Origin: Xylella taiwanensis
GTDB taxonomy: Bacteria; Pseudomonadota; Gammaproteobacteria; Xanthomonadales; Xanthomonadaceae
NCBI RefSeq assembly: GCF_013177435.1
Contig: NZ_CP053627.1
Coordinates: forward strand, 1,590,001-1,622,000
Direction: 5' to 3'
DNA length: 32,000 nt
This document shows, in pieces, positions 302-23,932 of the stretch; position 1 is the stretch's first letter; every line of letters begins with the position of its first letter. Made by a program: the position numbers and the translations under genes. Under the pieces are notes generated by a model. It worked only from the letters and a program-made list of their open reading frames with translations. It made no database searches and had not been told where the DNA came from.

Positions 302-305
302 AAAA

Positions 306-5213: not shown

Positions 5214-5224
5214 CACATCACCTC

Positions 5225-5554
5225 TCACCTAAATTTAAGTTCAACTGTTTTATTTGTAATCTCCATCAAAGAAGGATTCTTCTCTATATCAATCGTCCAC
5301 CTCGCTCCGGTTTCTTTTTGTGAAGAAGAAACGGACCTCAAACGCACACTGGTTCCATCACTGAGTTTAGCCAGATAAACCCCTGGGCTGACCTGCTTTA
5401 AAGGCACATCTCCGGCCAATTGCTGCGCATAGTTTTTAATATCCTGATCAGTTAAGGCCTCTGATTTAAACACCTTCACATGACCCGCTTTATTACTTCC
5501 CCCTCTCACTTTGGGGTCATACGGGGTGGCTTTGAACTCCACGCCTGCAATCAC
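5225..5554 (-). pseudogene. Family-A toxin stub (last roughly 105 codons only)
   Basis: The frame opens immediately after an in-frame TGA (..TGA GTG ATT GCA GGC GTG GAG TTC AAA..). Homology to full-length family-A toxins begins at ..GVEFKATPYDPKV. No pretoxin or delivery region is present. Confidence 0.75.
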
Positions 5555-5618
5555 TCATTCATAATTAAGCTGATTTAACTAGCCGCTGGTAACATCATGT
5601 CATCAGCGGCCTTGATGC

Positions 5619-6044
5619 TCATCCAAACAAATTGCGCAAGGATTCATTAATCTCATCCCCGGTGATGACTTCATCGGACTCTTCGTAATCCTCGGGCTTG
5701 TTGTAGTCAAATTCGATATTGAACTTAACTTGACCGGATTCAGCATTGGGACGAATAGTACATGTCAAACCCCAGATACGATCTCCAGTGAACTTCATAA
5801 GTTCATCCCTAATATAAAAAACAGCATCGGCAGCACGACAACGAAAATCCTTAGACCCACCAATCCATTTCTCATCCACACGCCCGTCTTTTACTAACCA
5901 CCATTCAGATGAAACCATTTTAGAAAAAACACCATATTTACCCACCACTTCATCCCAAGCGCGCTCGCCTGGAAATGCCATCACATCATCTGCAATGGCC
6001 TGATACGCTTCTTCGACATTTTGAAATTCAAATTCGCTATTCAT
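5619..6044 (-). CDS. Immunity protein for the His-Me nuclease CT (ImmN, 141 aa)
   Basis: Its ATG overlaps the toxin stop (ATGA at 6041-6044). It is a small acidic protein with a paralog at 27457-27894 and a remnant at 24873-24939. The layout is reminiscent of YezG/EsaG-type nuclease immunity proteins, but I did not verify that. Confidence 0.7.
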   Translation of the reverse strand: MNSEFEFQNVEEAYQAIADDVMAFPGERAWDEVVGKYGVFSKMVSSEWWLVKDGRVDEKWIGGSKDFRCRAADAVFYIRDELMKFTGDRIWGLTCTIRPNAESGQVKFNIEFDYNKPEDYEESDEVITGDEINESLRNLFG

Positions 6045-8989
6045 TGATTAAATATCCTTACAAATTCTTTACCATCAATCGTTGCTTCAACGACAAACTT
6101 ATTCGGTCTCACGCCACCAGTGGCCGGATAACCCAGATCGATTTTGACACTCACGGACTTACCGTCATGCAATGCTTGATGAAAATGATGTTCCATTTTT
6201 CTCCAATCGGTTCTGTTCAAAATCTGTGCTTGGGGCACGAGATTGATCCTATCACCGGCTCCGCCTAGGCTGGAGGCAATCAAATGCCCGCCTTCATCGC
6301 CCAGTTCGCCACACTTACCCATACAGCGTTGCTGGTAGGTATTGCGATCCATCTTTTTTGAAATCAAATCTGCTTGCACATTTTTTACTCGGCCTGCTGT
6401 GTCTGTCACATACCCATGACCGTTATCCAACACATAGGCTGTCTTAGGTTCCAGAGAACCATTGACCGCTTTATCCCAACCAGTGTTCTTGCTGCCTGTG
6501 GTGATTTGTTTGACCTGGCTGACATCGGCCCGCTTGGCTAACTGATCAGTCAATGCCTGACGCCGGGCGACAACATCGGTTGCACCGGAGATCCAGCGAC
6601 CGCCGATTTTGGCCGCTCTCACGCCGTATTTGGCCAGGTTGCCGATCATCACCGAGGCGATGTATTCCTCGCCTTTTTCTAGGGCCACTTGTTCTATGGT
6701 CTTTTCCCCTGAACGAATCGCTTTGATGTCTTGCCAGGCGTCATAGGCGGTCAGGCCTTTATCGGCTAACCAAAGGGCACCAATGAGCACGGGGACGAAG
6801 ACCGCGTTGTTTTCGGTTTCCAGCCGGGCTGCTGCACTGCTCACCGCCGCTTCGCCACCGGCGGCGGCGGTGATGCCGGCCACCAGGCTGGTGACGGTAT
6901 CGGTGCGCTGTTGTTTTTCCGCGGCGCTCAGGCTGGCAACGTCGGCGCCGGTGGCGCGGTCTAGTAGGTTATTGATGACCACGGCCGCCGCCGCGCCAGT
7001 GGCGCCGGCGCCGCACCCTTGGCCTTGGGCGGCAGCACCAGCGCAGCCCAGCAGGCCTTGCAGGGCCGCACGGGCCGGTTCGCTGTCTAGTTGGTCGGCC
7101 AGTGTTTTGACTTGGCTGGCGCCTAGGCTTTGCAGGTAGTTAACCGCAGCGCCTTGAAGCATTTGGGTGGCGCTGCCGGTCACGTGGCTGCCTGCGGCCA
7201 GGTTCAGGGCGGTCACAATCGTTCTGCCGGTGCCGCCTACGTCCCAGGTGGCGTTGTCTTGGAGGCGCTGTTGTAGGGCCGCGATTAGGGCCGGGTCACG
7301 TTGGTGTTCGGGTTTGGCGCGTTCGCTGTCTAGGGCCTGTTGGGTTTGGGTGGCTTCTTGAGCGCGGTTGTTAATAAAGGTGCCGACTTCGCGCTGTAGG
7401 CCGCTGACGATGGTAAAGCCGGCTTTGATCTCTTGTTCGTTGAAGATCGGCTGCAGGGTGTGGCTGGTGTCTTGGCCGGTGAGCACGTCGTGGTTGAGGG
7501 CGGCGATGGTCTCGGCGGCGGTCTGCCCGGTGCGGGCCTGTTGGCCGGCTTGGTCACGGATGGTGATGGCGCCAGCGCTGATGCCGCTTTGGGTGGTGCT
7601 GTGGCTGGCGTCGCGGGCGTTGATGACGCCGGGGGGAGCCACGCTCACGCCGTGATAGCCCGGCAGTTGGGTGCCAGGCACCTGTTCTGCGGTGGCGGCG
7701 CGGCCTTGTTGGTCGGTCCCCACGCCGCCGGGGCCACGGCTGTAGCCGCCGCCTAGGCTCACGTGGCTGGCGCTGTAGGAGGCGTGGTTGTCCAGCGCTG
7801 TTTCGCTCAGGGTGGCGGTGTCCAGGGCGTTTAGGCCCGCTTGGGCGGCGGCGGCGCTGGAGGTGATCAGGCCACCCATCAGGGTGGTGTGCCCGCCCAC
7901 GGTCACTTGAAAGCCCCCATCACCAGCCAGCAGGCCGCTTTGTTCGGTAACGCTGCTGTAGTCGCTGCGGATGGTGTGATGGTTGAGGTGGGCGCTGCCA
8001 GAAACACCAACCCCAGCGGTGAAGCTGCCGCCGATGCTTTGATCTTTGCTGCGGTACTGGTGGGTGTCTTGGAGGCTTTCGATGTCTAGGTTGCCGCCAA
8101 TGGTGGCCATCAGCTGGGGGGCGCTGGCCACGGCGCCGCGTAGGATGGTGTTGCCCCCAGATTCCAGCACCAGCAAGCGACCGCCCTGCACGCGGGTGTT
8201 GGTCCAGGTGACATCGGTACTGGCGCCGCTGCCTTTGGAGGCGCTGCCCTGGACGGTGAGGCCGGCGCTGGCGCCGCCGGTGCCCAGGTTCACCGCCACT
8301 CCCACGCCGTGACCGCTGCCGCGGCTGTCGCGGGTCATCTGTTCGGTGTTTTTGGCCGCCGCCATGACAAGGTCGCCATCGGCTTTGAGGTGGGTGACGT
8401 TGCCAGCGCTGATCTGGGTGCCGCTCAGGGTCAGGGTGGACTGTTCACCGGCGCCAGTGGCGCTGATGGTGATGTTGCCGCCGGCGTGGAGGGTGGATGC
8501 AACGGCGCGGTCGCTGTGGGTGGTGGTGGTGCTGTGGTATTGGGTGGTGCCCAGGGTCGCCGTGAGGTTTACGCCGCCCAGGACCTTGGGGTCGCTGCCG
8601 ATGGCATCTACGGCGTTTCTGGCGGCCAGGGCGGCGGTGATTCCCGCTAGGGCCTGGAGGCGGGGGGTGGAGGTCCGCCCGGCGGCCGCTGTCATGTGCT
8701 GGGTGGTTTGGAAGGCCGCAATCGCTGGATTGCTCAGGCTCGCGGTCAGGCCGCTTTGGCGAAACTTAGTTTCCTGAGTGGTGTGCTCGGTCTCACGGGC
8801 TTCGACAATGGCTACTTTTTTGCCGTGGATGTCAATGTTGCCTTCCGGGGCAATCAGGTCGATGCCAGGGGCCTGGACGGCGCCTTTGCTGGAGGAGATG
8901 AAGATGTTGCCATTGAGGGCGGCCACGGTGTTGCCCGACCCTAGGGCGGCGGTGTTGGTTTCGCCCACGGCCACGGTGGCCATGTCCAT
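6041..8989 (-). CDS. Large orphan cdiA 3' fragment (982 codons): FHA-2-type repeats, pretoxin region (ETENN at 6806-6823) and a His-Me (EssD/YeeF-like, Endonuclease_NS_2-type) nuclease CT
   Basis: The N-terminus MDMATVAVGETNTAALGSGNTVAALNGNIFISSSKGAVQAPGIDLIA matches two separate stretches of the main cdiA. The C-terminus carries ..GDEGGHLIASSLGGAGDRINLVPQAQILNRTDW... (the DxGHLIA..GG....N..PQ...N motif). There is no signal peptide or TPS domain. Confidence 0.85.
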   Translation of the reverse strand: MDMATVAVGETNTAALGSGNTVAALNGNIFISSSKGAVQAPGIDLIAPEGNIDIHGKKVAIVEARETEHTTQETKFRQSGLTASLSNPAIAAFQTTQHMTAAAGRTSTPRLQALAGITAALAARNAVDAIGSDPKVLGGVNLTATLGTTQYHSTTTTHSDRAVASTLHAGGNITISATGAGEQSTLTLSGTQISAGNVTHLKADGDLVMAAAKNTEQMTRDSRGSGHGVGVAVNLGTGGASAGLTVQGSASKGSGASTDVTWTNTRVQGGRLLVLESGGNTILRGAVASAPQLMATIGGNLDIESLQDTHQYRSKDQSIGGSFTAGVGVSGSAHLNHHTIRSDYSSVTEQSGLLAGDGGFQVTVGGHTTLMGGLITSSAAAAQAGLNALDTATLSETALDNHASYSASHVSLGGGYSRGPGGVGTDQQGRAATAEQVPGTQLPGYHGVSVAPPGVINARDASHSTTQSGISAGAITIRDQAGQQARTGQTAAETIAALNHDVLTGQDTSHTLQPIFNEQEIKAGFTIVSGLQREVGTFINNRAQEATQTQQALDSERAKPEHQRDPALIAALQQRLQDNATWDVGGTGRTIVTALNLAAGSHVTGSATQMLQGAAVNYLQSLGASQVKTLADQLDSEPARAALQGLLGCAGAAAQGQGCGAGATGAAAAVVINNLLDRATGADVASLSAAEKQQRTDTVTSLVAGITAAAGGEAAVSSAAARLETENNAVFVPVLIGALWLADKGLTAYDAWQDIKAIRSGEKTIEQVALEKGEEYIASVMIGNLAKYGVRAAKIGGRWISGATDVVARRQALTDQLAKRADVSQVKQITTGSKNTGWDKAVNGSLEPKTAYVLDNGHGYVTDTAGRVKNVQADLISKKMDRNTYQQRCMGKCGELGDEGGHLIASSLGGAGDRINLVPQAQILNRTDWRKMEHHFHQALHDGKSVSVKIDLGYPATGGVRPNKFVVEATIDGKEFVRIFNQ

Positions 8990-9028: not shown

Positions 9029-9844
9029 TCACTGCTTTTGGATGACCACCGATTGCAAGATGCCGTCCATCAGCTTGCGGGCGCGTTGGTAATCCTCGGT
9101 GTTCTGTTGCCGCGCGGCTTCAATAAAGTTGAAGTTGACGGTGATGTAGTAGCCGCTGTCGCCAATGGGGGTCATCCAGGTTTCTACGCCATCGCCGACC
9201 GGCGTTGGGATACGTGCCCGGTACCAGGTCCAGGCGTTACCCCAGCGGGTTTCGGTCCGCGGGGCCTCCAAGAAAGCGCGATTGGACGGGCGACCCTGAT
9301 AGGACTCATTGATCAAATCCGTCACCCTTTGAACCTTTGTCTGGATACTTTCGCTGGCCGTGCTACGGATCCCAAAGTTAATGTCGTTGCGCCCCGCAAA
9401 CTCTGCATCGCACAACGCATTGAACTCCACCCCGGCGACTTGCTTTTTGACCGTGCCATCGGGCTGGGGGGTGCTTCTGTAATACGGGTAGCCGATGAAA
9501 TGGGCATATTTTCTAGCAACCATTGGCGGACCATCTCCAATGCTGGCCACGATTCCTGGGACATCTTCTCCATTACTACGCCGCTCCATCACCATCTGGA
9601 CATTGTCCGGCGGCGAGCTGGGGTAACAGCGGAAGATATTGATGCCCTTGATAAAGGCGTGTTTGACCGTGTATTGGCCTAAAAAATCCACCTTGAAGGA
9701 TTCCAGGCTCAGGTCGCGGTTCTCCCAGGGGCCGGCCAGCATCGGTTTGCCGGTGCGGGAGTCGATACGGGGGCCGGGGCCGCTGCATGCCAGCAGTACG
9801 CTGCTGGCAAGTATCAGGACACCTAGCTTGATGCGGCGGTGCAT
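9029..9844 (-). CDS. Tandem lipoprotein paralog E (candidate lipase immunity protein)
   Basis: It has a signal peptide with a lipobox: MHRRIKLGVLILASSVLLAC|SG. The ORF track starts at GTG 9862, overlapping the previous stop. The ATG (MH..) start is conserved in all five copies. This is unit 5 of an 830-bp periodic array. Confidence 0.8.
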   Translation of the reverse strand: MHRRIKLGVLILASSVLLACSGPGPRIDSRTGKPMLAGPWENRDLSLESFKVDFLGQYTVKHAFIKGINIFRCYPSSPPDNVQMVMERRSNGEDVPGIVASIGDGPPMVARKYAHFIGYPYYRSTPQPDGTVKKQVAGVEFNALCDAEFAGRNDINFGIRSTASESIQTKVQRVTDLINESYQGRPSNRAFLEAPRTETRWGNAWTWYRARIPTPVGDGVETWMTPIGDSGYYITVNFNFIEAARQQNTEDYQRARKLMDGILQSVVIQKQ

Positions 9845-9858
9845 GGACATTACCGCGC

Positions 9859-10674
9859 TCACTGTTTTTGGATGAGCACCGATTGCAAGATGCCGTCCAT
9901 CAGCTTGCGGGCACGTTGGTAATCCTCGGTGTTCTGTTGCCGCGCGGCTTCGATAAAGTTGAAGTTGACGGTGATGTAATAGCCGCTGTCGCCAATGGGG
10001 GTCATCCAGGTTTCCACGCCATCGCCGACCGGCGTTGGGATACGTGCCCGGTACCAGGTCCAGGCGTTACCCCAGCGGGTTTCGGTGCGTGGGAGCTCCA
10101 AAAAATTCGAGTTGGAAGGGCGACCCTGATAGGACTCATTGATCAAATCCGTCACCCTTTGAACCTTTGTCTGGATACTTTCGCTGGCCGCGCTACGGAT
10201 ACCAAAGTTAATGTCGTTGCGCCCCGCAAACTCTGCATCGCACAACTCACTAAACCTCACTCCGGCGACTTGCTTTTTCACCGTGCCATCGGGCTGGGGG
10301 GTGCTTCTGTAATACGGGTAGCCGATGACATGGGCATATTTTCCAGCAACCATCGGTGGGCCACCTCCAATGCTGGCCACGATTCCTGGGTTACTGGAGC
10401 CATCTCGATATGACTTCATCACTACCTGCACATTGTCCGGCGGCGAGCCTTGGTAACAGCGGAAGATATTGATGCCATTGATAAAGGCGTGTTTGACCGT
10501 GTATTGGCCTAAAAAATCCACCTTAAAATATTCCAGGCTCAGGTCGCGGTTCTCCCAGGGGCCGGCCAGCATCGGTTTGCCGGTGCGGGAGTCGATGACG
10601 GGGCCGGGGCCGCTGCATGCCAGCAGCAGGCTGCTGGCAAGTATCAGGACACCTAGCTTGATGCATATGTGCAT
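9859..10674 (-). CDS. Tandem lipoprotein paralog D (candidate lipase immunity protein)
   Basis: It has the same architecture with lipobox LLLACSG. It differs from its neighbours in discrete patches (..KSYRDGSSNPGIVASIGGGPPMVAGKYAHV.., ..VRFSEL..). Confidence 0.8.
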   Translation of the reverse strand: MHICIKLGVLILASSLLLACSGPGPVIDSRTGKPMLAGPWENRDLSLEYFKVDFLGQYTVKHAFINGINIFRCYQGSPPDNVQVVMKSYRDGSSNPGIVASIGGGPPMVAGKYAHVIGYPYYRSTPQPDGTVKKQVAGVRFSELCDAEFAGRNDINFGIRSAASESIQTKVQRVTDLINESYQGRPSNSNFLELPRTETRWGNAWTWYRARIPTPVGDGVETWMTPIGDSGYYITVNFNFIEAARQQNTEDYQRARKLMDGILQSVLIQKQ

Positions 10675-10688
10675 GGGGATTACCGAGC

Positions 10689-11504
10689 TCACTGTTTTTG
10701 GATGAGCATCGATTGCAAGATGCCGTCCATCAGCTTGCGGGCGCGTTGGTAATCCTCGGTGTTTTGTTGCCGCGCGGCTTCAATAAAGTTGAAGTTGACG
10801 GTGATGTAGTAGCCGCTGTCGCCAATGGGGGTCATCCAGGTTTCCACGCCATCACCCACCGGCGTTGGCATATACGCTCGGTACCAGGTCCAGGCGTTGC
10901 CCCAGCGGGTTTCGGTGCGTGGGGGCTCTAAAAAACGATTGGACTTGTAAGCACGATCAGGAGCACTGACCCGTGCAACCATTCTTTGGACATGCGTCTG
11001 GATACTTTCGCTGGCCGTGCTACGGATCCCAAAGTTAATGTCGTTGCGCCCCGCAAACTCTGCATCGCACAACGCATTGAACTCCACCCCGGCGACTTGC
11101 TTTTTCACCGTGCCATCGGGCTGGGGGGTGCTTCTGTAATACGGGTAGCCGATGAAATAGGCATATTTATCAGCAGGACGAGGAGGTCGTTTACCGTAAC
11201 CGTCTGACACAATCCCCGGATTACTGGAACCATTGCGAAAAGACATCATCACTACCTGCACATTGTCCGGCGGCGAGCCGGGGTAACAGCGTTTGATATT
11301 GATGCCATTGATAAAGGCGTGTTTGACCGTGTATTGGCCTAAAAAATCCACCTTAAAATATTCCAGGCTCAGGTCGCGGTTCTCCCAGGGGCCGGCCAGC
11401 ATCGGTTTGCCGGTGCGGGAATCGATGACGGGGCCGGGGCCGCTGCATGCCAGCAGTACGCTGCTGGCAAGTATCAGGACACCTAGCTTGATGCGGCTGT
11501 GCAT
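10689..11504 (-). CDS. Tandem lipoprotein paralog C (candidate lipase immunity protein)
   Basis: It has the same architecture. Its variant patches are ..MSFRNGSSNPGIVSDGYGKRPPRPADKYAYF.. and ..THVQRMVARVSAPDRAYKSNRFLEPP... Confidence 0.8.
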   Translation of the reverse strand: MHSRIKLGVLILASSVLLACSGPGPVIDSRTGKPMLAGPWENRDLSLEYFKVDFLGQYTVKHAFINGINIKRCYPGSPPDNVQVVMMSFRNGSSNPGIVSDGYGKRPPRPADKYAYFIGYPYYRSTPQPDGTVKKQVAGVEFNALCDAEFAGRNDINFGIRSTASESIQTHVQRMVARVSAPDRAYKSNRFLEPPRTETRWGNAWTWYRAYMPTPVGDGVETWMTPIGDSGYYITVNFNFIEAARQQNTEDYQRARKLMDGILQSMLIQKQ

Positions 11505-11518
11505 GGGGATTACCGCGC

Positions 11519-12337
11519 TCACTGCTTTTGGATGACCACCGATTGCAAGATGCCGTCCATCAGCTTGCGGGCACGTTGGTAATCCTCGGTGTTCTGTTGC
11601 CGCGCGGCTTCAATAAAGTTGAAGTTGACGGTGATGTAATAGCCGCTGTCGCCAATGGGGGTCATCCAGGTTTCCACGCCATCACCCACCGGCGTTGGGA
11701 TACGTGCCCGGTACCAGGTCCAGGCGTTACCCCAGCGGGTTTCGGTCCGCGGGGCCTCCAAAAAAGCGCGATTGGACGGGCGACCCTGATAGGACTCATT
11801 GATCAAATCCGTCACCCTTTGAACCTTTGTCTGGATACTTTCGCTGGCCGTGCTACGGATCCCAAAGTTAATGTCGTTGCGCCCCGCAAACTCTGCATCG
11901 CACAACGCATTGAACTCCACCCCGGCGACTTGCTTTTTCACCGTGCCATCGGGCTGGGGGGTGCTTCTGTAATACGGGTAGCCGATGAAATGGGCATACA
12001 TTGGATATGCCTGAGGAGGCCGTTTACCGTAGCTGTCTGACACAATCGCCGGGACATCTTCGCCATTACTACGCCGATACATCACCACCTGCACATTGTC
12101 CGGCGGCGAGCCGGGGTAACAGCGGAAGATATTGATGCCATTGATAAAGGCGTGTTTGACCGTGTATTGGCCTAAAAAATCCACCTTGAAATATTCCAGG
12201 CTCAGGTCGCGGTTCTCCCAGGGGCCGGCCAGCATCGGTTTGCCGGTGCGGGAATCGATGACGGGGCCGGGGCCGCTGCATGCCAGCAGTACGCTGCTGG
12301 CAAGTATCAGGACACCTAGCTTGATGCGGCGGTGCAT
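11519..12337 (-). CDS. Tandem lipoprotein paralog B (candidate lipase immunity protein)
   Basis: It has the same architecture. Its variant patch ..YRRSNGEDVPAIVSDSYGKRPPQAYPMYAHF.. makes it one codon longer. Confidence 0.8.
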   Translation of the reverse strand: MHRRIKLGVLILASSVLLACSGPGPVIDSRTGKPMLAGPWENRDLSLEYFKVDFLGQYTVKHAFINGINIFRCYPGSPPDNVQVVMYRRSNGEDVPAIVSDSYGKRPPQAYPMYAHFIGYPYYRSTPQPDGTVKKQVAGVEFNALCDAEFAGRNDINFGIRSTASESIQTKVQRVTDLINESYQGRPSNRAFLEAPRTETRWGNAWTWYRARIPTPVGDGVETWMTPIGDSGYYITVNFNFIEAARQQNTEDYQRARKLMDGILQSVVIQKQ

Positions 12338-12351
12338 GGACATTACCGCGC

Positions 12352-13164
12352 TCACTGCTTTTGGATGAGCACCGATTGCAAGATGCCGTCCATCAGCTTG
12401 CGGGCACGTTGGTAATCCTCGGTGTTCTGTTGCCGCGCGGCTTCAATAAAGTTGAAGTTGACGGTGATGTAGTAGCCGCTGTCGCCGATGGGAGTCATCC
12501 AGGTTTCCACGCCATCACCCACCGGCGTTGGCATATACGCTCGGTACCAGGTCCAGGCGTTGCCCCAGCGGGTTTCGGTGCGTGGGGGCTCTAAAAAACG
12601 ATTGGACTTGTAAGCACGATCAGGAGCACTGACCCGTGCAACCATTCTTTGGACATGCGTCTGGATACTTTCGCTGGCGGCGCTACGGATCCCAAAGTTA
12701 ATGTCGTTGCGCCCCGCAAACTCTGCATCGCACAACTCACTAAACCTCACCCCGGCGACTTGCTTTTTCACCGTGCCATCGGGCTGGGGGGTGTTTCTGT
12801 AATACGGGTAGCCGATGAAATGGGCATATTTTCTAGCAACCATTGGCGGACCATCTCCAATGCTGGCCACGATTCCTGGGACATCTTCTCCATTACTACG
12901 CCGCTCCATCACCATCTGGACATTGTCCGGCGGCGAGCTGGGGTAACAGCGGAAGATATTGATGCCATTGATAAAGGCGTGTTTGACCGTGTATTGGCCT
13001 AAAAAATCCACCTTGAAGGATTCCAGGCTCAGGTCGCGGTTCTCCCAGGGGCCGGCCAGCATCGGTTTGCCGGTGCGGGAGTCGATACGGGGGCCGGGTC
13101 CGCTGCATGCCAGCAGTACGCTGCTGGCAAGTATCAGGACACCTATCTTGATGCGGCTGTGCAT
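12352..13164 (-). CDS. Tandem lipoprotein paralog A (candidate lipase immunity protein), first gene after cdiA
   Basis: The ATG at 13162-13164 (MHSRIKIGVLILASSVLLACSG) lies 5 nt after the cdiA TAA (13170-13172). The 71-codon upstream extension in the ORF track overlaps cdiA and is not conserved in the other copies. Confidence 0.8.
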   Translation of the reverse strand: MHSRIKIGVLILASSVLLACSGPGPRIDSRTGKPMLAGPWENRDLSLESFKVDFLGQYTVKHAFINGINIFRCYPSSPPDNVQMVMERRSNGEDVPGIVASIGDGPPMVARKYAHFIGYPYYRNTPQPDGTVKKQVAGVRFSELCDAEFAGRNDINFGIRSAASESIQTHVQRMVARVSAPDRAYKSNRFLEPPRTETRWGNAWTWYRAYMPTPVGDGVETWMTPIGDSGYYITVNFNFIEAARQQNTEDYQRARKLMDGILQSVLIQKQ

Positions 13165-13169: not shown

Positions 13170-16100
13170 TTACTCCGCGGGGGTGAGCTGTTGGCGCAAC
13201 TGCTGCAGTTGCTGTTGGCGGGAGGTGCCGGTTGGGGGCGATGCAGGGGTGAAGGGTGTCAGCATGCCTGGGGTGCCATCGAGCTGCTGTTGCCAGTAGG
13301 CCGATTGATCCAGGAGGCGTTGCAACTGGGCCAGTTGGGTGGCGACGGGGTCCTCCGGACGCCGCACCGCCTGCCATTGCTGCAGCGCTGCCATGGTCTG
13401 ATCGTGACGCTTACGGTTCATCTCATCGATATCCAGGCCGGCATAGCTGAACACCCCTTCAGGATTGACGTTGTCCGGATGGCTGCCCAGGGCGGCGGTG
13501 CCGCCGCTGCTGTGCACCGAGTAGTTGGTCTCAAAGATCTCCCGCAGGTCCTTCAAACCCGCGGTCCCCGGATAGCCACCAATAATATGGGCGACAAAGT
13601 CATTGGGCGGTGACCAGAAGCCGGGTTTATTTTTAGTAACCTGCCCCGCGACCGCCGTCAGACGGCTCTCTTCAGCCGCGGGGTTGTTGACGAAGATCTT
13701 TAATTCATCGCTCTTCACCCCAAGTGCTGCGAGCACATTGAGCGCCCCGGTTTCAGTCATGGTGCCACGGCTATGACCCACAAAATTTACCGGGTTGGTG
13801 TACTGTTTATCCGCTTCGTTATACATCAACGTCTCCGCCACCTGGGCCTGGAGCCGTGAGGCCGGGCTGACCACGCGCCCATTGCTGACCTCCATCAGCT
13901 TCTCCAGGCCGGCCACGATCAGTTCCCCCACAGTATGGGTGGGCTGGGTATGCACCACGTAGGTGGTGTTAACGTAGGTTTCGCCGGTGTCCTGGATATT
14001 TCCCTTATTCCTGTCCCACGGCGTCATTTGCAAGCCTAGTTCCGCAGCGCGGCGCAACAAGTTGCTGATGCCGTTGCCGAACACGGTGCTGTTTTTCTTC
14101 TCTTCGTCCGCCAGGGCGCGCAGCGCATCCAAGGTCACCGGGATCGCTTGGATATTGGCTACGCCGCCGGTCAGGGCCCAGCGGCTTTGGTCGGTGAGCA
14201 GGTCATCGTTGGGGCCGCGGGTGCCGGCGATGAACTCGGCGACTTTGGTCGCGTCCAAGGTGCGGTTGGCGTCGTGGATGGTGTCTGTCAGGTCGTTGAC
14301 GGCCTGCTCGCGGAGGCGTTTGTCCGACCAGCCCGGATGGGCTTGCCGCAGGGCGGCGGTGCGTTCTTCCACCAATGTGTTGTTGGCTGCATGGTCGTTG
14401 GTGCAGGGTTGGCTGACGCAGAACACCTTCTCAAGGGTCGGGCTGAGGATGTTGCTGAGGCCTTGGTCAATCAGGATGCGGCCGCTGTCGGCCAGTAAGG
14501 CGCCGGCCTGGCTGCGGTGCTGTACGTCAGCCTGCAAGGTGCCCAGGTCGGTGGCCGCCAGAGGGGTGTGGGCCCCATCCGGGTCACGGCGCAGGGTCGC
14601 CAGGGGGGCGGGATCGCCGCCGCGCAGCACGATGTTAGCCGCGCTCACCACCGCTTCGGTAGTGCTGCGGTCGTTGACCTGACGATCAGCGCTGCCCATG
14701 TGTTGACCAATCAGGGTTCTGCCGAGGCTGTAGATCGGAAGCTGGCTGTTGCCCTGGGAGAGGCCGCTGACCAGGTCGCTGCTCAGGGTGAAGCCGGAGG
14801 CACTCGCACCGGCATTGTGGTGGTTGTCCACGGTGCTGTGGCCCATGCTCTGGGTGGAGAGCTTTTGCAATGCCTGAGGGGCGCTGCTGACGATGGCGCC
14901 GCCGTCCAGTTGGGTATGGCCGCCCACGTGGATGGTGTAGCCGCCGGCGCCGGCAAATAGGCCGCTTTGGTCACGCACGCTGGCGTAGTCCTGGGTGGCG
15001 TGTTGATTGGCATGGCTGAAGGTGGCGTTGCTGCCAAGCCCGCTCATGACCAAGGTGGCGCCGGCGCTGTTTTGGCGCTGTTGGGAGCTGGCACGCAGGG
15101 TGTCCTGGCGGCTTTCGATGTCTAGGTTGCCGCCAATGGTGCCGTTGATGCTATCGGCTAAGACATGGGCGCCACGCAGTTGCGCGTTGCCACCGGCGTT
15201 GAGGGTGGCATTGCCACTGACCCGGATGGCGGTGTCCACCTGGGTGACAGACTGCTGACTGGACTGGCCTCTGCCCCGGGCGCCGCCGGCGTTGAGACTG
15301 GGGCTGGAGGAGCCCACGTTCCATTGGGCACCCACGCTGCTGCTGCTGTAGCGTTGGCTGGAGGTGTGCTCTTGGGTGCTCTGGGCGCTGTGCAGAATGA
15401 GGTCACCAGCCGCATTGAAGGCCAGGCTACCGCTGCTAATCTGGGCACCAACGGCGCTGAGTTGCCCGGTGCCCTCTTGGCGCTCGCCTTTTTCATTGTG
15501 GATGCCAAAGGCGGTGACGGAGACTTTGCCGCCGGCGCGTAGTTGGGCACCGCGGGCCGTGGTGGCGGTCATGCTGGTCTGGCTTTGGCTGGTGGTGCTG
15601 CCGAAAGAGACGCCGCCGCCGAAGGTGTGGGGTATGCCGCCTTCGCGCAGGGTCTTGATTTCGTCCAGGGCACGATCACCGGCACTGAAGGCGCTGTTGA
15701 GGGCGCGTACGCCGTACAGCGTGCTGAGTTGTCCCGTCGGGGCATGGCGGGCGTTTCTAATGTCGGCGGGCACGGCCTGGGCGAAGGTGCCCAGGGCGCT
15801 GCTGAAGCCAACGCTAAAGCCGCTGTGTTTGCTGGCCTGCTGCTGTTGAGCGCTGGCGGTGTCGTACACCGGGTCCATGGTGACGTTGACGCCGCTGACG
15901 TTGATGTTGCCGGCGGCAATCAGGTCGATGCCAGGGGCCTGGACGGCGCCTTTGCTGGAGTGGATGAGGATGTTGCCATTGAGGGCGGCCACGGTGTTGC
16001 CGGTCAAGTAGGTGGCGTGGTGGCTGCCTTGTTGGCTGGCTTTTTGGGAGCCCACGGTGAAGCCGGCGCCAGAACCGAACACGCCGCTGCGGCGCTGGGT

Positions 16101-19100
16101 GGTGCTGTAGCTGGAGCTGTGGGTGTTTTGGGCGCCGAACATGCCCACGCCGTGGGTGCCTTCAATGTGGGGGTTGCCATCGGCTATAAAGTCGGTGCCA
16201 ACGCTGTAAACCTTGTCGCCTGTGACGGTGACCTTGGTGCCGCCCAGGACGCTGCCCAGGGCAATGGTGTCTTGGCTGCTGGCGGTGCTGTGGCTACGGC
16301 TGGAGCCCCATAGGCCGCTGCGCCGGCTGGTGCGTTCTTCTTGGCCGCTGCGCCGTTCTTGGCCGGCCACCAGGGCCACGGTGCCGTCAGCAGAACTGAT
16401 GTTCAGCTTGCCTTGGCGGCTGTCCAGGGTCACGGCACGCCCGATGACGCCACCCTCGCCTTTGATGGTGACGTTGCCAGTGCCAGTAATACGGGTGCCT
16501 ACTTCGCTGTCGCGGGTGCTGTGGATGCTGTTGCCCGGTCCTAGGGTGGCGGTGTTGGTTTCGCCCACGGCCACGGTGGCCATGTTGAGTTTGCCGGCGG
16601 CGGTGACGCTGCTGGTGCCGCCCGGGCCGGTGTTGCTGAAAGTGACGCCTTGCAGGGTCATGTCTTTGTCGGAAGTCACGTGCAGGGTGCCGCCGGGGCC
16701 GGTGACGCGAAAGGTCGATGGACGGTCGATTTCGGTGCGGCTGAAGTGACGTTGGCCTGAGGTACTGTAGCCGCGTGTGGTGCTGCGGGCTATCAGGCCG
16801 CCAGCGGCGGTGACATCCAGTGAACTGCGGGCGCTGAATGTGCCGCCAATGTCGGTGAGGGTGTCTTTGGTATGCACTTTGACGTGGTCGGCGTCCATCT
16901 GGCCGCCTTCTTGGTGGATGTTGTCCGCGTCAATCGTGAGGCGGTCGCGCCCGGTGAGGGTGCCGGTGTTGGTGAGGGTGCCCGATAGGTCCATGGTGAG
17001 GCGGGCACCGGCCATGAGGGCGCCGTCGGTCTTCAGGTCCCCGCGGCGCGGGCGTAGGTAGACACGGGGCACCAGGGCGGTGGTGCTGGTGCCGTTGGGC
17101 AGGGTGACGGGTTGTTCCACCAGCCAGACGATGTCGCTGGTGAGTTGGGCCATTTGGTCAGCGCTCAGGGCGATGCCGGGGCGTAGGCCGTAGTGCTGGG
17201 CAACGGTGACGCCGGCGTCCAGCAGGGCGCGGTATTGTTGGTCGTCGTTGGCGTAGCCGTCCAGCAAGCGCCGCCCGGTGAGTTGGGCGATTTGTTCGCG
17301 GATCAGGCGTTGTTCGTAAAAGCCGTCGCCAAGGCGTTTGTGCATGCTGGCCAGGGGGTCGTTCAGGGCCTGAAGTTGTCGGTCGGCGGTGGTCCGGTCG
17401 CTGCCGCCGCTAAAGTGTGGGTCGGTGACGATGAGGCTGGCGGCGTCGGGATGGACGGTAAACAGGCGGTTGTTGGGCAGGATCAGGGGGCCAGGAACGG
17501 TGGTCGCGGTGGCCCAGGACGGGGCAGCCACGCTGATCGGGGCGTTGTCGGTGTGCAGGGTCGGTAGGCGGGCGTCCGCCAGGTCCTGCAGGGTGGTGTC
17601 GGGGATGGTCAGCGGGAGCTGGCTCTCCACGGATAAGGCGGGCTCCTCGGCAGACTGGTCCGTGCTCGGAGCCGGGGTGAGCTCGGGCATCAGCGGCATC
17701 GGGGGGCTGGTGTGCAGGTCGCCCAGGGGCGGGTGTTCGACGTGGGTGGTGGTATGCAGGGATTGCAGGCGGTTGTTGACATCCACGGCGGCGATGTATT
17801 GGTGGCCGCCGCTGGTGATGCGCCCGCCAATTTGGCCGATGGTGTAGCGCTGGGACGGCATGGTCCAGGTCTCGGCGGCGCCGGCGTAGGTGTAGCTGAT
17901 GTTGTTGAACTGCGTGGTGCGCGACAGTTCAGCAGTGAGGTTGTCGATGAGGCTGGCTTTGCTGTACTCCGGGGCTTTTTCGGGGTCCTTGGGCGGGTGT
18001 GGCGGCAGGCCAACGATGGTCTGGTCGCCACCGGCAAGGATGTCGGCGTAGTGGTTGGCCAGGCGGTCGACCTGGACGAACATGGCGCCGCCAGATTGGA
18101 TCAGCGCCGCGGCGCCGACGCCCGGTTGCAGGATGTCGTCGACGGTGGTCTTGGTGGCGTGGCGGTACTGTTCGTTGGTTTTGACATCCGTGGGGCCGCG
18201 GCGCATGTGGGTCAGGGTGTGGTCCGGGTCGGTGTAGTCACGCCAGGTGATCAGCCGGACGCAGTCGGTACGGCAGGTGCCGTAGGCCGGGTCGTAGGTC
18301 AGGACTTCGTCTTGGTAGGTGATGTGGACGTCTTGTTGGCGTTCGTTTTTTTGGGGGGTGTCCAGGCCGGCCCAGGCGCTGCCCTGCCGGGCGGCGCTTT
18401 GGACTTGGTCGGGGTTGGGTTGTTGGTCTTGGCGGTCGGTGTAGTACAGCACGACGATGCCTTCGCGCTGGCTCAGGTCCAGGCGCTGGCGTTGGCCGCG
18501 GGCGGCATACAGGCCGCCGCGGGCATACAGGTAGGCGCTGGTCTGCGGGGTCAGGCGCACCACGGCGCGGTGGATGATGTAGCCGTCCGGGGTGGTATAG
18601 GGTTCGTCTTGGAGGATGTCGTTGGGGTTGAGGTAGTAGATCTCGTGGGCGTCGTAGTTGCTGGTGAGAGTGAAGTCCGCGTCATTGTTGCGTTGGTTGT
18701 CGCGCCAGGCCGGTTGGGACATGCGTACGGTGGTGCTCACGCCGGGCGCCTGGGTGAGGTGGACGTTGTCGCGGATGTTGTTGAGGGTGGTGGTGGTGAT
18801 GTCCAAGGCGCCGTCCACGTCAATGGTGGCGCTGCGGTTGTCCAGCAGGGTGGCGCTGCCGGTGGCGTGGCGATCGCTATCCAAGGTGCCGCCAATGGCG
18901 GCATCGCCGGCGCTGTAGATCAGGGCGGCGCCGCTGTTACGCACGGTGGCCGCGCCAATGTCCAGGCGTTCGCGGGCGGCAATGGTGGCGGCGTGGGTCT
19001 GGCCGGCGGTGGATTCATCGCGGTTGGTGAGGGTCTGGGCCTGGAGGGCGAGGTGGTCGCCGTAGAGGCGCGCGGTGCCAATGTTGTCGAGGGTGGCGGC

Positions 19101-22100
19101 CTGGAGGTGGGTGGTGGCCGCATCAATCAGGCCGCGGTTGCTCAGGGTCGCAGTGGCGGTCAGTTGGGCCTGGCCGCTGGCGGTGATTTGGCCGGTGGCA
19201 GCGTTGTCAATGGTGCGGGCCTGCAGGGTCAGGTCGCCGGTGTGCAGCAGGCCGGCGTTGCTGAAGGTGTCCGCGGCGCTGAGCTGGGCTTGGCCGCTGG
19301 CAAGGATCTGGGCGGCGGCAGCGTTATCGATGCGCTGGGCGTGCAGGGTCAGGTCACGGCCCTGAAGCAGGCCGCTGTTGCTCAGGGTCGCGGTGGCGGT
19401 GAGTTGGGCTTGGCCGCTGGCAGCCATCTGCCCGGTGGCCACGTTATCGATGCGCTGGGCCTGCAGGGTCAGGTCACGGCCCTGAAGCAGGCCGCTGTTG
19501 CTCAGGGTCTCGGTCGCGGTGAGTTGGGCCTGGCCGCTGGCAGCCATCTGCCCGGTGGCCACGTTATCGATGTTCTGGGCGTGCAGGGTCAGGTCACGGC
19601 CCTGAAGCAGGCCGCTGTTGGTGAGGGTCTCGGTCGCGGTGAGTTGGGCTTGGCCGCTGGCAGTCATCTGCCCGGTGGCAGCGTTGTCAATGGTGCGGGC
19701 CTGCAGGGTCAGGTCGCCGGTGTGCAGCAGGCCAGCGTTGCTGAAGGTGTCCGCGGCGCTGAGCTGGGCTTGGCCGCTGGCAGCCATCTGCCCGGTGGCA
19801 GCGTTGTCAATGCGCTGGGCGTGCAGGGTCAGGTCGCCGGTGTGCAGCAGGCCGGCGTTGCTGAAGGTGTCCGCGGCGCTGAGCTGGGCTTGGCCGCTGG
19901 CAGCCATCTGCCCGGTGGCCACGTTATCGATGCGCTGGGCGTGCAGGGTCAGGTCCGCCGCCTGGATAAGGCCGCGGTTGTGCAGGGCCCCGGCGGTACG
20001 CACGGTGAGCAGGCCGGCGGCGCTGAGGGTGCCGCCGTTGTCCAGACCTTCCTGCAGGGCCAGGGTCAGGGCGGTGCCAGCATGCAGCAGGCCGGCGCCG
20101 CTGAAGGCGCTCAGGTGCAGGCTTTGGGCGCCGCCACTCAGCAGGGTGCCGGCTTGGTTGGTCAGTTGGGCGGCACTCAGCTGTAGGGTGCCGCCGGCAG
20201 TGAGGCGTCCGGCGGTGTTCTGCAGGGCGCCGCGTAGGGTCAGGGCGATGTCTTGGGCAGCGCTGAGGTGGCCATCGCGGTTATCCAGGGTGGTGCTGTC
20301 GATCTGCAGGTGGGTGGCGTGCAGGCCGGTGGCCGGGGCGGCGGTGTCACGGGGGCGGGAGCCAGGGTCCGGGGCCGCAGGGGTCGTTCGGTTGTCCAGG
20401 GTGGTGGTGGTGATCGCCAGGGCCCCGGCGGCGCTGATCAGGCCGTCGTGGTTGTCCAGGCGGTTGTCTAGGTGCAGGCGCGCATCCGCGCCGCTGTGCA
20501 GGCGTCCGCCGGTGTTGCTCAGGGTGTGGGCGTCGATCTGGAGACCGTTGGCGCCGCCAAGTTGGCCGCCAGCGGTGTTGTCAATGTGGGTGCTGTGCAG
20601 CTGGGTGGCGGCTTGGGAGAATACTTGGCCGCCGTGGTTGTTTAGGGTGGCGCTGCGCAGGTCGAGGGCGCCGCCAGCCAGTAGGGCGCCGCCGGCGCTG
20701 TTGTCCAGAAGGTGCGGGCCGGTGTCGATGCGCAGGGCAGTGGCCGCTTGCACCAGGCCGGCACGGTTGTCTAGGACGCCGCTGTGCAGGGTCACGGTGC
20801 CGCTGGTGCTGCCCAGGCGGCCACCGCGGTTGTCCAAGGGTTGGTTTTGGGTGTACAGGGTCACTTGGGCGCCGCTCAGGGTGCCGGCGCGGTTGGTCAG
20901 GCCGGCGCTGCTGAGCCAGAGGGCTTCGCGACTCTGCAGCAGGCCGGCGCTGTTGTCCAGCAGGCCGCTCAGGTGCAGCTGCGCTGCGCCGGCCGCGTCC
21001 AGGGTGCCGTGTTGGTTGAACACGGTGGCCGCGCTCAGGCGCAGGTCTTGGCCGCTGGACAGGGTGCCGTTGTCTTGGTTGTTGAGGGTGCCAGTAACGT
21101 GCAGGTCCAGCAGACCGGTGGCGGTGTGCAGGACGCCGCCGCGGTTGTCCAGGGTGCTGGCGTGCAGGGTGCCAGGGCCGCTGAGCAGCAGCTGGCCTTG
21201 GGTGTTGTCCCAGGTGCCGGTGGTCAGGGTGGCCGGGCCAGTGAGCAATAGATGGCCGCCGCGGTTGTCTAGGGCTTGGGTGGCCTCCAGGCGGCTGGCG
21301 CCGGGGCCGGTGCTGTGCAGGGTGCCGCCGCGGTTATCCAGGGTGGCGGTGTGTAGGTCCAGCACGCCGTTGGTGGCGATGCTGCCGCCACGGTTGTCCA
21401 GGCGGGTGCGGGCCTCCAGTTGGAGGGCTTGGTCTGACTGGGCGGTAAGTTGGCCGCCGGCGGTGCTGAGGACGCCGGTACGGATGCTCACGTGCTGGGC
21501 CCAGGTGGTGCCTTGGCTCAGGTCGGTCTGGGTGCCGGTGATGCTCAGGGCGCCTTGGCTGCTCAGGGTGCCGCCGGGGCCGAAAAGGGTGGCGGCGTCG
21601 ATCTGCAGGGACCCCTGCCCGCTGTGCTGTACGGTGCCGCCGCTGTTATCCAGGGTGGTGGCGTTGAGGGTGAGGGCGCTGCCGGTGCTGGATAGGGTGC
21701 CAGTGGTGTTGTCTAGCAGGCCACCAATGCGCAGGTGGGCCGCCTGGGGGCCGGTGTGGAGGAGTTGGCCGCCACGGTTGTTGAGCTGGTGGGTCTGTAG
21801 GTCCAGGGCGCCGCTGGCCTGAAGTTGGCCGGCGTCATTAGTAAGTTGCCCGGTCTGCAGGGTCAGAGCGTTAGCCGCGCTGGCCAGCACGCCGTGTTGG
21901 TTGTCCAGTAGGCCATCAATGCGCAGGTGGGCCGCCTGGGGGCCGGTGTGGAGGAATTGGCCGCCACGGTTGCTGAACTGTTGGGTGTTCAGGGCCAGGG
22001 CGCCGCTGGCCTGAAGTTGGCCGGCGTCATTAGTAAGTTGCCCGGTCTGCAGGGTCAGAGCGTTAGCCGCGCTGGCCAGCACGCCGTGTTGGTTGTCCAG

Positions 22101-22535: not shown

Positions 22536-23865
22536 CGGCGACGGGAGGGGCGCTGGGGCCGGTGGGCAGGTCCGTGGAGGGAGGCTGCCCGATAGACGGC
22601 CCCTCCACAGCTCCCAGGCGGCCTTGGGCTTGGTTGTCGAACTGCTGGGCTTGGATGGATAGGGGTTGGGCGCCGGTTTGTTCCAGGCGACCGCCGCGGT
22701 TGTCCAGGGTGGCGCCGCTCAGGTCCAGTCGAGCGGCGTTGAGGGTGCCGCTGCGGTTGTCAATGTCGGCCTGAGTGTGCAGGTGCAGGGTCTGGGCAGC
22801 ACTGATCAGGCCGCTGTTGCCAACCCCCTGTGTCGCGTTCAGGTGCGTGTCTGTGGCCGCTTGCAGGCGACCACTGTTGTCTAGGCGGCCATCCACCGTG
22901 ACCACCAGTTCACCGGACTGGGCCGTCATGGCGCCAGCATGACGGACGCCTAAGCCGTGTTCGGTGCCTATCAGGGTGATCTTGCCGGCGTACATCCCGC
23001 CCAGGGCCGATACATCCAGGGCAAAGGCCGGAGGCGCCGCCGCGCCAGGCAGGGAGACAGCCGCGCTACCGTCAGCCGGCACGGAGGCAGCGCCAATGCT
23101 CCCCTGCAGTTGCTGGGCCCATAGGCCAGCGTTGAGCTGTATGGAGCGGGTGATCAGGGCGGTGTAGTCAGCCGTGCGGCTGTCCAGGCCAGCGCCGTCC
23201 AGGCGAATAGCACCGCCTTGAACGCGGTAGCTCTCTAAGGCGCCGCCAGCATCAAACTCGGGAGCTCCCGTGCTCAGGGTGAAACGGCTGGCGTTGAGCA
23301 CCCCGCAGCCGCTGCAGGTGATCCCAGAAGGGTTGGCAATGATCACTTGGGCGCGGGCGCCAGCCACTTCCACCATGCCATGCAATTGGCTGGGTTGGGC
23401 GCTGTTTACTTCGTTAAGAATCACCCGGGCGGTGCCGGTCGCCAGCCAGGGGTTGCCCGGTACCCAGCCGCCCAGGTGTGTTTGGGTTTGGGTGCGGGCG
23501 TTGTTGAGAATCGCGCCAGAGGCGCCCACGTCTAGCTGTTGGTAGGTGTTGCGCGATACTCCCGCCTGGCTGGGGGTTTGAATATTGATCAGGGCAACAC
23601 CAGGGGACGCTTCCAAAATCGTGGGGCGCTGCGTCCCGGGGGCCTGGGGATCGGCCACCACTTGGGCGCCAGCCAGGCTGCACACCCCAACCCAACCCAG
23701 GCTCAACCATAATCCAAAGGACACTGCACGCACTTGCGCGGTCTGTCGGCGCGCTAGCTGCGGTGAGGTGCCCGCGGCGCTACCGCGTGGAACAGCCAGT
23801 TCTGAAGCCACTTGCCATAGGCGCAGGGCGCGGTTGTAGATCAGGCGGTACAGGTCCTTGTTCAT
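22495..23865 (-). CDS. cdiA: cdiA/tpsA-type exoprotein, proximal part: extended signal peptide (ESPR) and TPS secretion domain, terminated by a frameshift
   Basis: The ATG at 23863-23865 is preceded by AAGGA. The ESPR is MNKDLYRLIYNRALRLWQVASELA. TPS hallmarks are ..AGVSRNTYQQLDV.., ..ILNN.., ..GNPWL.., ..ILNEV.. and ..VIIANPSGITCSGCGVLN... The frame ends ..EPPGSPPPFRCH* just after the homopolymer. Confidence 0.9.
   Translation of the reverse strand: MNKDLYRLIYNRALRLWQVASELAVPRGSAAGTSPQLARRQTAQVRAVSFGLWLSLGWVGVCSLAGAQVVADPQAPGTQRPTILEASPGVALINIQTPSQAGVSRNTYQQLDVGASGAILNNARTQTQTHLGGWVPGNPWLATGTARVILNEVNSAQPSQLHGMVEVAGARAQVIIANPSGITCSGCGVLNASRFTLSTGAPEFDAGGALESYRVQGGAIRLDGAGLDSRTADYTALITRSIQLNAGLWAQQLQGSIGAASVPADGSAAVSLPGAAAPPAFALDVSALGGMYAGKITLIGTEHGLGVRHAGAMTAQSGELVVTVDGRLDNSGRLQAATDTHLNATQGVGNSGLISAAQTLHLHTQADIDNRSGTLNAARLDLSGATLDNRGGRLEQTGAQPLSIQAQQFDNQAQGRLGAVEGPSIGQPPSTDLPTGPSAPPVAVEPPGSPPPFRCH
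22510..22519. repeat. G10 (coding-strand C10) homopolymer at the cdiA frameshift
   Basis: I counted 10 consecutive G at 22510-22519. With 9 (or 12) the frames fuse to read ..VAVEPPGSPPPSVAIEPPGNDTSPL... Confidence 0.9.
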
Positions 23866-23932
23866 CCATAGTCCTTGTGATGAGGGAGGATCCCGAACGC
23901 CCAGGTCAGGTGAGGGATGCTCCATGAGATAA

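Follow-up and report, generated by a model that had tools for sequence, protein, structure and literature searches.

The DNA analysed here is a 32,000-nt stretch of the Xylella taiwanensis genome (contig NZ_CP053627.1, positions 1,590,001 to 1,622,000; hereafter the window). Five genes for DUF769 (PF05590) lipoproteins lie in it head to tail on the minus strand, directly 3' of the toxin module of a CdiA-like gene, CdiA being the exoprotein of contact-dependent growth inhibition (CDI). We call the first copy after the toxin c5, followed by c4, c3 and c2, and the last one c1 (Table 1). The stop codons of the five open reading frames (ORFs) are at positions 9029, 9859, 10689, 11519 and 12352, which matches the unit spacing of 830, 830, 830 and 833 nt reported in the initial annotation. 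The same annotation spoke of an exact 830-bp period; the spacings are as described, but that of c3 is partly a coincidence of allele lengths, since c3 keeps the period because its allele at one variable patch (patch 1b, see below) is one codon longer and its allele at another (patch 3) one codon shorter. With the conserved ATG (MH..) taken as the start, c1 to c5 have coding sequences of 816, 816, 816, 819 and 813 nt. All five reading frames are intact and the indels are in-frame only. The c1 protein is 100% identical to the X. taiwanensis protein P0001, a GGAG lies 9 nt 5' of the c5 ATG within the 3' end of cdiA, and no promoter-like or minus-strand terminator-like site was found inside the array.

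Table 1. Features of the DUF769 array and its surroundings (positions in the window, unless an alignment of the five copies or another locus is named)
Feature	Coordinates	Strand	Evidence or remark
Copy c5	12352..13164	-	ORF; presumed cognate of the toxin; haplotype aabb; 813 nt
Copy c4	11519..12337	-	ORF; haplotype abaa; +1 codon
Copy c3	10689..11504	-	Pfam DUF769 E = 3.3e-125; haplotype bbab
Copy c2	9859..10674	-	ORF; haplotype baba
Copy c1, last in the array	9029..9844	-	Pfam DUF769 E = 3.2e-107; haplotype aaaa
14-nt spacers between copies	12338..12351, 11505-11518, 10675-10688, 9845-9858	-	
N-terminal low-divergence block	alignment columns 96-270		grouping c1, c5 versus c2, c3, c4
Patch 1a, block	alignment columns 272-304		grouping c2, c3 versus c1, c4, c5
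Patch 1b, block	alignment columns 308-349		grouping c3, c4 versus c1, c2, c5
Patch 2, block	alignment columns 441-507		grouping c2, c5 versus c1, c3, c4
Patch 3, block	alignment columns 530-659		grouping c3, c5 versus c1, c2, c4
Patch 1a, by copy	c1 9561..9593; c2 10391-10423; c3 11221-11253; c4 12054-12086; c5 12881-12913	-	
Patch 1b, by copy	c1 9509..9557; c2 10339-10387; c3 11166-11217; c4 11999-12050; c5 12829-12877	-	
Patch 2, by copy	c1 9417..9431; c2 10247-10261; c3 11074-11088; c4 11907-11921; c5 12737-12751	-	VEFNAL or VRFSEL
Patch 3 and tail, by copy	c1 9209..9338; c2 10039-10168; c3 10869-10995; c4 11699-11828; c5 12532-12658	-	RARIPTP or RAYMPTP
C-terminal toxin module (T), putative serine hydrolase, GHSRG	13170..13997	-	homology to X. 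fastidiosa orphans of ~292 aa
cdiA body, 3121-aa ORF, haemagglutinin repeats and C-terminal variable region	13170..22535	-	
Run of ten C, frame change between N-terminal and body ORFs	22510..22519	-	
N-terminal ORF, ESPR and two-partner secretion (TPS) domains	22495..23925	-	Pfam TPS E = 1.6e-47, ESPR E = 1.6e-11
Orphan cdiA fragment 3' of the array, 982 aa, Endonuclease_NS_2 toxin	6041..8989	-	PF13930 E = 5e-25
Presumed immunity gene of the Endonuclease_NS_2 orphan	5619-6044		
Flanking direct repeats	5038-7410 vs 26880-29260; 25-1559 vs 30457-32000; 25506-27383 vs 29177-31063		
Chimeric DUF769 genes, X. fastidiosa	L005 10892-11875; L013 14358-15395; L006 about 1783-2458		

The DUF769 profile matched the two copies scanned with 358 and 417 bits, against a cutoff of 21, and over its entire length (profile positions 1-259 of 259); close homologues of the array proteins are all annotated DUF769. 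By inspection, each copy starts with a basic N-terminus followed by a hydrophobic core and by LLAC and S, which we read as a lipobox. It takes the form MHRRIKLGVLILASSVLLAC followed by SGPGP in X. taiwanensis and LLLAGC followed by SS in X. fastidiosa, and appears as ALAGC or ISGC in distant homologues, marking the array proteins as predicted lipoproteins. The family is tiny: an exhaustive profile search returned 53 cluster representatives among 1.84 billion, near-confined to Xylella haemagglutinin loci, all of them stand-alone lipoproteins of ~270 aa with no CdiA-length protein among them. Two long profile matches, P0134 and P0136, were considered as CdiA fusions and rejected as repeat proteins. 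The label "DUF769" has also been given to toxin-side domains of Escherichia coli, namely the CdiA-CT toxin type 1 of DEC9E and the Usp N-terminus (PMC11630599 Table 2; PMC5536347). These passing labels, the only mentions of DUF769 that our literature search returned, do not seem to fit the Pfam family and are not supported by the profile search, in which, however, a fusion of this kind might be concealed by clustering. A search of the PDB by sequence gave no match for DUF769. A structural model of 277 residues (pLDDT, the predicted local distance difference test, 80.4; pTM, the predicted template modelling score, 0.74) loosely resembled proteins of the PsbP/Mog1/DcrB/DUF1795/EagT6 class in Foldseek, with a probability of 1.0 but with template modelling (TM) scores of 0.27-0.50 and a root-mean-square deviation of ~10 Å.

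At the nucleotide level the five copies are 87-94% identical to one another. Their 163 variable columns are strongly clustered (variance-to-mean ratio ~6.7 per 30-nt bin), as had been noticed in the initial annotation, and the allele strings quoted there are all present, each in the correct copy. The sharing pattern that it gave is also correct, the first and last copies having patch 1 in common and differing in patches 2 and 3, and the first and third having patch 3 in common. It described three patches with at least four alleles at patch 1. The patches are real and do reassort, but the array is better described by four to five blocks of two alleles each. We replaced the four alleles of patch 1 by two adjacent two-allele sub-patches, 1a and 1b, which group the copies differently and occur in all four of the 2 x 2 combinations. 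In the alignment of the five copies, informative sites form contiguous runs whose groupings are mutually incompatible, and the resulting four-patch haplotypes are all different (Table 1).

The alignment has 89 biallelic informative sites; of the 3916 pairs that they form, 2209 failed the four-gamete check, and the Hudson-Kaplan minimum was eight recombination events. In a permutation test modelled on the pairwise homoplasy index, none of 2000 shuffles reached the observed value, neighbouring sites being far more compatible. Single-breakpoint tests were strong as well, with p down to 9e-20: c5 resembles c1 on its 5' side and c3 on its 3' side, the switch falling between columns 366 and 419 (p ~9e-20), and c1 shows a breakpoint relative to c4 and c5 (p ~7e-18). 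Copies with the same patch allele have zero or near-zero differences there while their other blocks differ, so that at least some exchanges were recent and took place within the array. Gene conversion or segmental shuffling among the tandem copies, as originally suggested, is thus borne out by incompatible block groupings, by breakpoint statistics and by patch alleles that are identical at synonymous sites. The array is a mosaic and its copies recombine.

We then compared the 4.5-kb array among three complete X. taiwanensis genomes, in which it is 100%, 99.98% and 99.93% identical and contains the same copies in the same order. The sole differences between CP087983 and the window across the 4.5 kb are a change of TTC to AAA at 12952-12954 on the minus strand, in c5. 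AAA is the c3 codon at this place and the flanks are identical over as much as 75 nt, giving a possible conversion tract of 3-75 nt. As three adjacent substitutions copy the codon of a paralogue, a short gene-conversion tract is the best explanation, and by this 3-nt event conversion between the copies is ongoing. In CP011800, five C were found against the six at 11951-11956 of the window, a one-base difference in a C run of c4. This 1-nt loss breaks the c4 frame, so that no gene is called there; the assembly is an older one, and a homopolymer error is the probable cause. Short reads resolve 830-bp repeats of 87-94% identity poorly, and together with the homopolymer difference in one older genome this raises the concern that the array is a collapsed or over-expanded repeat, or that the assembler made chimeric copies. 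We rejected such an artefact, whose probability we put close to nil, because three independent complete genomes agree on the same five copies and their order. In addition, 21 further similar places were reported for the array, the copies are 6-13% different, which is enough for unique placement, and comparable arrays occur in many complete genomes of X. fastidiosa.

To what extent the blocks are older than the array can be read from the proportions of synonymous (pS) and nonsynonymous (pN) differences. Between alleles, pS and pN were 0.51 and 0.39 in patch 1a, 0.48 and 0.24 in patch 1b, and 0.38 and 0.25 in patch 3; in the framework blocks pS was 0.05-0.13 (0.23 in one short block) and pN 0.00-0.04. 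This corresponds to a pN/pS of ~0.5-1 in the patches versus ~0.05-0.15 in the framework. As both measures are high in the patches, the alleles are old lineages and not the outcome of recent substitution bursts. The nearest neighbours of the framework are the other X. taiwanensis copies (0.01-0.08, against 0.10-0.26 to X. fastidiosa genes). The b allele of patch 1a, in contrast, is 0.10 from the X. fastidiosa gene L014_3I and 0.63 from the a allele of X. taiwanensis, and the two alleles of patch 3 likewise differ more from each other than each does from an X. fastidiosa allele. Thus the 1a-b and patch 3 alleles are nearer to X. fastidiosa alleles, whereas the framework is species-specific. Patch 2 is exceptional, its alleles being only 0.19-0.22 apart and both far from X. 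fastidiosa, and they look species-specific. With several patch alleles common to X. fastidiosa, part of the shuffling predates the present array. Across 83 unique DUF769 proteins each patch falls into 9-14 allele classes, which are combined into 53 different five-patch haplotypes, and many allele quartets show all four combinations. Mosaicism is therefore a feature of the entire DUF769 family and not something peculiar to the array.

The gene preceding the array shows the hallmarks of CdiA, i.e., ESPR and TPS domains and haemagglutinin repeats, in two different frames; Fil_haemagg and Fil_haemagg_2 are recorded for the identical body gene in locus L001. At the run of ten C where the frames change, frame 2 ends in ..VAVEPPGSPPPFRCH and a stop, and frame 0 continues as ..SVAIEPPGNDTS... 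The run could be a phase-variable tract subject to slipped-strand mispairing, a fixed frameshift or pseudogene lesion, or a homopolymer sequencing error. The cdiA body is homologous to the orphan fragment on the other side of the array, and this homology stops ~540 aa short of the C-terminus. The last ~275 aa are homologous to stand-alone modules of X. fastidiosa, with patch-wise variation. Two homologue searches found relatives of the toxin only in Xylella, most of those in X. fastidiosa being stand-alone proteins of ~292 aa, and the boundary of the window's toxin showed no VENN motif. In the toxin alignment GHSRGTMT, NPAAE, D201 and VHSSGG are invariant; the Ser of GHSRG, D201 and H230 (in VHSSGG) follow one another in the order expected for an alpha/beta-hydrolase triad, which, with a sub-threshold match to Tle3, points to a putative serine hydrolase that may be lipase-like. 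Like the DUF769 genes, the toxin modules are mosaic, with five variable blocks around the invariant motifs. One toxin module of X. fastidiosa (L005 6265-7404, 379 aa; protein P0090) carries an internal duplication of ~100 aa including a second GHSRG, probably from unequal recombination between neighbouring toxin modules.

In X. fastidiosa loci, toxin modules (T) and DUF769 genes (I) strictly alternate after the main gene. The orders observed are CdiA-I-T-I-T-I-T-I-I in L008, CdiA-I-I-I-T-I-I-T in L014, and CdiA-I-T-I-T-I-T-I or CdiA-I-I-T in others, with one to three I genes per toxin across the loci and a module number that varies too. In X. fastidiosa the I stop codon and the GTG start of the T that follows overlap by 4 nt (GTGA). 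A single T-I pair, again with a 4-nt overlap, was found at L015 2646-4243 (GCA_037189345.1, JBBCKJ010030168); its proteins have ~50% identity to those of Xylella, so the pairing exists outside the sampled Xylella species. This pair adjoins ordinary housekeeping genes. T and DUF769 genes are therefore partners in gene order, and the alternation of DUF769 with mosaic orphan toxin modules supports a toxin/immunity pairing in which DUF769 would have the immunity role.

The tight order of toxin and lipoprotein, with its stop/start overlap, might also be expected of a toxin accessory factor, i.e., a periplasmic steric chaperone, activator or adaptor whose variability tracks the toxin variant that it folds or loads. 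Lipases often need a partner encoded immediately downstream, as is the case for the Lif foldases, and the PsbP/Mog1/DcrB/EagT6 fold class includes effector chaperones. Runs of two to five toxin-less DUF769 genes would however be odd for a dedicated chaperone, immunity proteins typically combine hypervariable blocks with an otherwise very conserved sequence and a polymorphic toxin as partner, and the TM-scores behind the fold assignment are low, so that we consider an accessory role very unlikely. Even less credit is due to the idea that DUF769 proteins are variable envelope lipoproteins outside toxin defence, involved in antigenic variation or in phage or host evasion, and situated in haemagglutinin loci by chance. 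Tandem, recombining arrays of variable lipoproteins would fit this idea, and the staphylococcal DUF576 lipoproteins were first read in this way, before their immunity role was found (PMC10730906). Against it stand the strict alternation with toxin modules, the translational overlap, the recurrence at two separate loci and in a distant relative, and the near-confinement of a tiny family to Xylella haemagglutinin loci.

The junctions between the genes bear on how the toxin-less units arose. In X. taiwanensis the I-I junction reads CAGTGA followed by GCGCGGTAAT(CC/GT)CCATG, and the end of cdiA reads CCGCGGAGTAA followed by TCCCCATG. In X. fastidiosa, I-I junctions read AAATAA followed by AGGAGCCTTCTCCATG, and T-I junctions ACATTAA followed by GGAGCCTTCTCCATG. 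The immunity-only units of both species keep the last bases of the toxin gene and its ribosome-binding spacer. With this toxin-gene 3' remnant in their spacers, they look like T-I modules from which T was deleted, and we infer that the deletion happened independently in X. taiwanensis and X. fastidiosa and that the units were then propagated.

Two further observations concern the wider DUF769 family. The X. taiwanensis draft-contig proteins P0005 and P0167 (AF72_02795, AF72_02785) seem to point to a second locus in this species, with a toxin allele 86% identical to the toxin of the window and a sixth DUF769 gene whose patch combination is not present in the window. In some X. fastidiosa arrays the last DUF769 gene is chimeric, with ~115 N-terminal DUF769 residues joined to unrelated orphan-module sequence (Table 1), and this chimera marks the place where the array recombined with the orphan toxin that follows.

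Loss of the toxin genes is also what would be recorded if the copies were relics under neutral concerted evolution, with mismatch-limited conversion stalling at blocks that are ~40% diverged, the cassettes a by-product and no selected repertoire, and the extra copies perhaps conferring little or no protection. In line with such a history, the framework is homogenised within the species and the patches are not, the resident cdiA is broken too, X. taiwanensis genomes show next to no variation in copy number or sequence, and pN/pS in the patches is at most ~1, so that positive selection is not demonstrated. On the other hand, five intact frames with in-frame indels only and the strong purifying selection implied by the framework pN/pS speak against decay, the patch allele lineages outlasted the species split, which is unexpected for dead relics, and no two of the five haplotypes are the same. 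We regard a neutral origin as unlikely.

The account that we favour, and which we think is probably correct, is that the array consists of same-family DUF769 immunity lipoproteins, located 3' of a Xylella-specific polymorphic CdiA-type C-terminal toxin, that recombine blockwise. In this account the DUF769 proteins would be exported, lipid-anchored in the periplasm, and would bind and block an incoming toxin of the matching variant, the putative GHSRG serine hydrolase toxin presumably acting on the cell envelope. Copy c5 would be the likely partner of the resident toxin, and the other four copies would be remnants of modules that lost their toxin, kept against toxin variants of other Xylella. 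The conserved framework at the 5' end, middle and 3' end of the genes would provide the substrate for homologous recombination and gene conversion, both between neighbouring copies and between lineages of Xylella, which is a naturally competent genus. Such exchange may homogenise the framework within a species and at the same time reshuffle four to five old diverged blocks. These blocks, carried along as units, are probable specificity determinants, and the patches may form the toxin contact surface. From gene context it is plausible that the array serves as an immunity repertoire. One may go further and propose a self-diversifying combinatorial repertoire, in which conversion and incoming DNA generate block combinations that match a blockwise-reshuffled toxin and protect against recombinant toxins that were never met, and in which, for the first time, a CDI toxin would act as a periplasmic lipase countered by lipoprotein immunity. 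We judge this extended proposal doubtful.

Several results weigh against the immunity account. The split of the resident cdiA at the C run means that the strain may not deliver its toxin. Moreover, no suitably sized ORF for a CdiB (TpsB) gene was found upstream or downstream of cdiA within the window, and those ORFs in 24000-32000 that reach 150 aa are fragments of orphan toxins. A gene for the transporter may lie elsewhere; with cdiA out of frame and no cdiB in the window, the array may also be purely defensive. The toxin family found no match in Pfam, either for the single sequence or for all members of the alignment, in NCBIfam, or in the PDB by sequence and profile, its best family match being a sub-threshold hit to Tle3 (E = 0.076, 12.9 bits against a cutoff of 27), and an AlphaFold model built from an 18-sequence alignment was unusable (pLDDT 39.9). 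The nearest fold matches of DUF769 include the chaperone-like EagT6 and DcrB. On the DUF769 model, patches 1a and 2 lie at hairpin turns, patch 1b comprises a strand, a loop and a short helix, and patch 3 corresponds to the helix 173-186 and a lower-confidence loop 187-201, a placement made by secondary structure and pLDDT alone. When we asked whether toxin and immunity alleles covary, the toxin blocks T4 and T5 were associated with patches 1a, 1b and 2 of the downstream I (p ~0.0005-0.03), in 20 uncorrected tests on 18 unique, non-independent pairs confounded by physical proximity. The association with the upstream (preceding) I was weaker, and we regard the covariation as suggestive. Our literature search found no paper characterising DUF769 and no functional or binding evidence. 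Finally, copy number is constant among the three X. taiwanensis genomes, with no sign of repertoire turnover within the species.

Around the locus, orphan toxin/immunity modules form direct repeats on either side of cdiA and the array (83-98% identity, up to 2.4 kb; Table 1). Recombination between these repeats could delete or duplicate the entire locus. A second Endonuclease_NS_2 orphan at 27891-29066 lies within them, and beyond the Endonuclease_NS_2 orphan next to the array the window contains more orphan modules, including DUF596 genes.

An immunity role would give DUF769, whose function has been listed as "unknown" since the first Xylella genome, a testable function, and short "hypothetical" genes beside DUF769 genes would then be orphan toxin modules. 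It would also imply that the blockwise recombination of Gram-positive type VII immunity genes runs in a Gram-negative contact-dependent system. Plants and insect vectors can harbour several Xylella strains at once, and the strains exchange DNA; polymorphic toxin/immunity genes at haemagglutinin loci could shape their exclusion and co-existence. Since the variation falls into a few discrete blocks, the genes would offer a set of natural chimeras with which to map the specificity between toxin and immunity protein.

The closest precedent is the recombination among tandem immunity paralogues of type VII secretion, which proceeds via conserved blocks (Garrett et al. 2022, PMC9484751). Like the array, the esaG and tipC genes stand in strings of non-identical immunity genes beside a polymorphic toxin, conserved intragenic blocks act as recombination sites, and recombination between paralogues yields mosaics. 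Non-identical paralogues, conserved blocks flanking variable ones and statistical support for recombination were all found in the Xylella array. In esaG and tipC, recombination between paralogues also leads to gain and loss of copies; in Xylella, copy number is constant among the three X. taiwanensis genomes and differs among X. fastidiosa loci. The esaG and tipC genes belong to Gram-positive bacteria and encode cytoplasmic or membrane immunity proteins of unrelated families, whereas the array resides in a Gram-negative plant pathogen, in a type Vb (CDI) setting, and encodes predicted periplasmic lipoproteins. A further difference is that Xylella has arrays of toxin modules that are mosaic as well, and that its immunity-only units retain part of a deleted toxin gene.

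With regard to the proteins, TslA and TilA of Staphylococcus aureus come near, DUF576 tandem lipoproteins being the immunity to the TslA lipase (PMC10730906). There a lipase-type antibacterial toxin is countered by lipoproteins from multi-copy tandem clusters that vary in number and sequence, and the Xylella genes would be arranged alike. The families differ, TslA is secreted by the type VII system, and the immunity function of TilA was shown experimentally whereas that of DUF769 is deduced from the genes. The lipase effectors (Tle) and immunity proteins (Tli) of type VI secretion share a GxSxG-type motif and an adjoining immunity gene (presumed in Xylella) with the pair described here, and lipase-effector immunity proteins are typically periplasmic proteins or lipoproteins (PMC9860674). 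The toxin in the window, in contrast, passes no Tle family model, and its delivery would be by a two-partner-secretion exoprotein and not by type VI secretion.

The setting resembles that of the orphan cdiA-CT/cdiI modules of CDI loci, whose orphan immunity genes are proposed to give protection from foreign CDI toxins (PMC9086364). In both cases modules are arrayed 3' of cdiA after the main gene, and further orphan modules (the Endonuclease_NS_2 toxin and the DUF596 genes) are present in the window. Classical CDI orphan arrays, however, combine unrelated toxin and immunity families and begin at a VENN-type motif without a start codon, whereas a single family makes up the Xylella modules, each X. 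fastidiosa orphan starts at a GTG of its own, and the X. taiwanensis units have no toxin. Lipoprotein CdiI and hydrolase-type CdiA toxins are absent from that review (PMC9086364), in which the word "lipase" occurs nowhere. Polyimmunity loci (Zhang et al. 2012, PMC3482391) likewise contain at least four tandem immunity genes without adjacent toxins and derive diversity from recombination with stand-alone cassettes, but usually mix immunity families, whereas the array is of one family, diversified blockwise inside the gene; the only lipoprotein immunity family in that survey is Imm65. The mechanism as such is thus already known. Specific to this locus are the type Vb/CDI setting in a plant pathogen, a lipoprotein family without published function, the block-mosaic structure of both toxin and immunity genes, and a deletion scar showing the origin of the immunity-only units.

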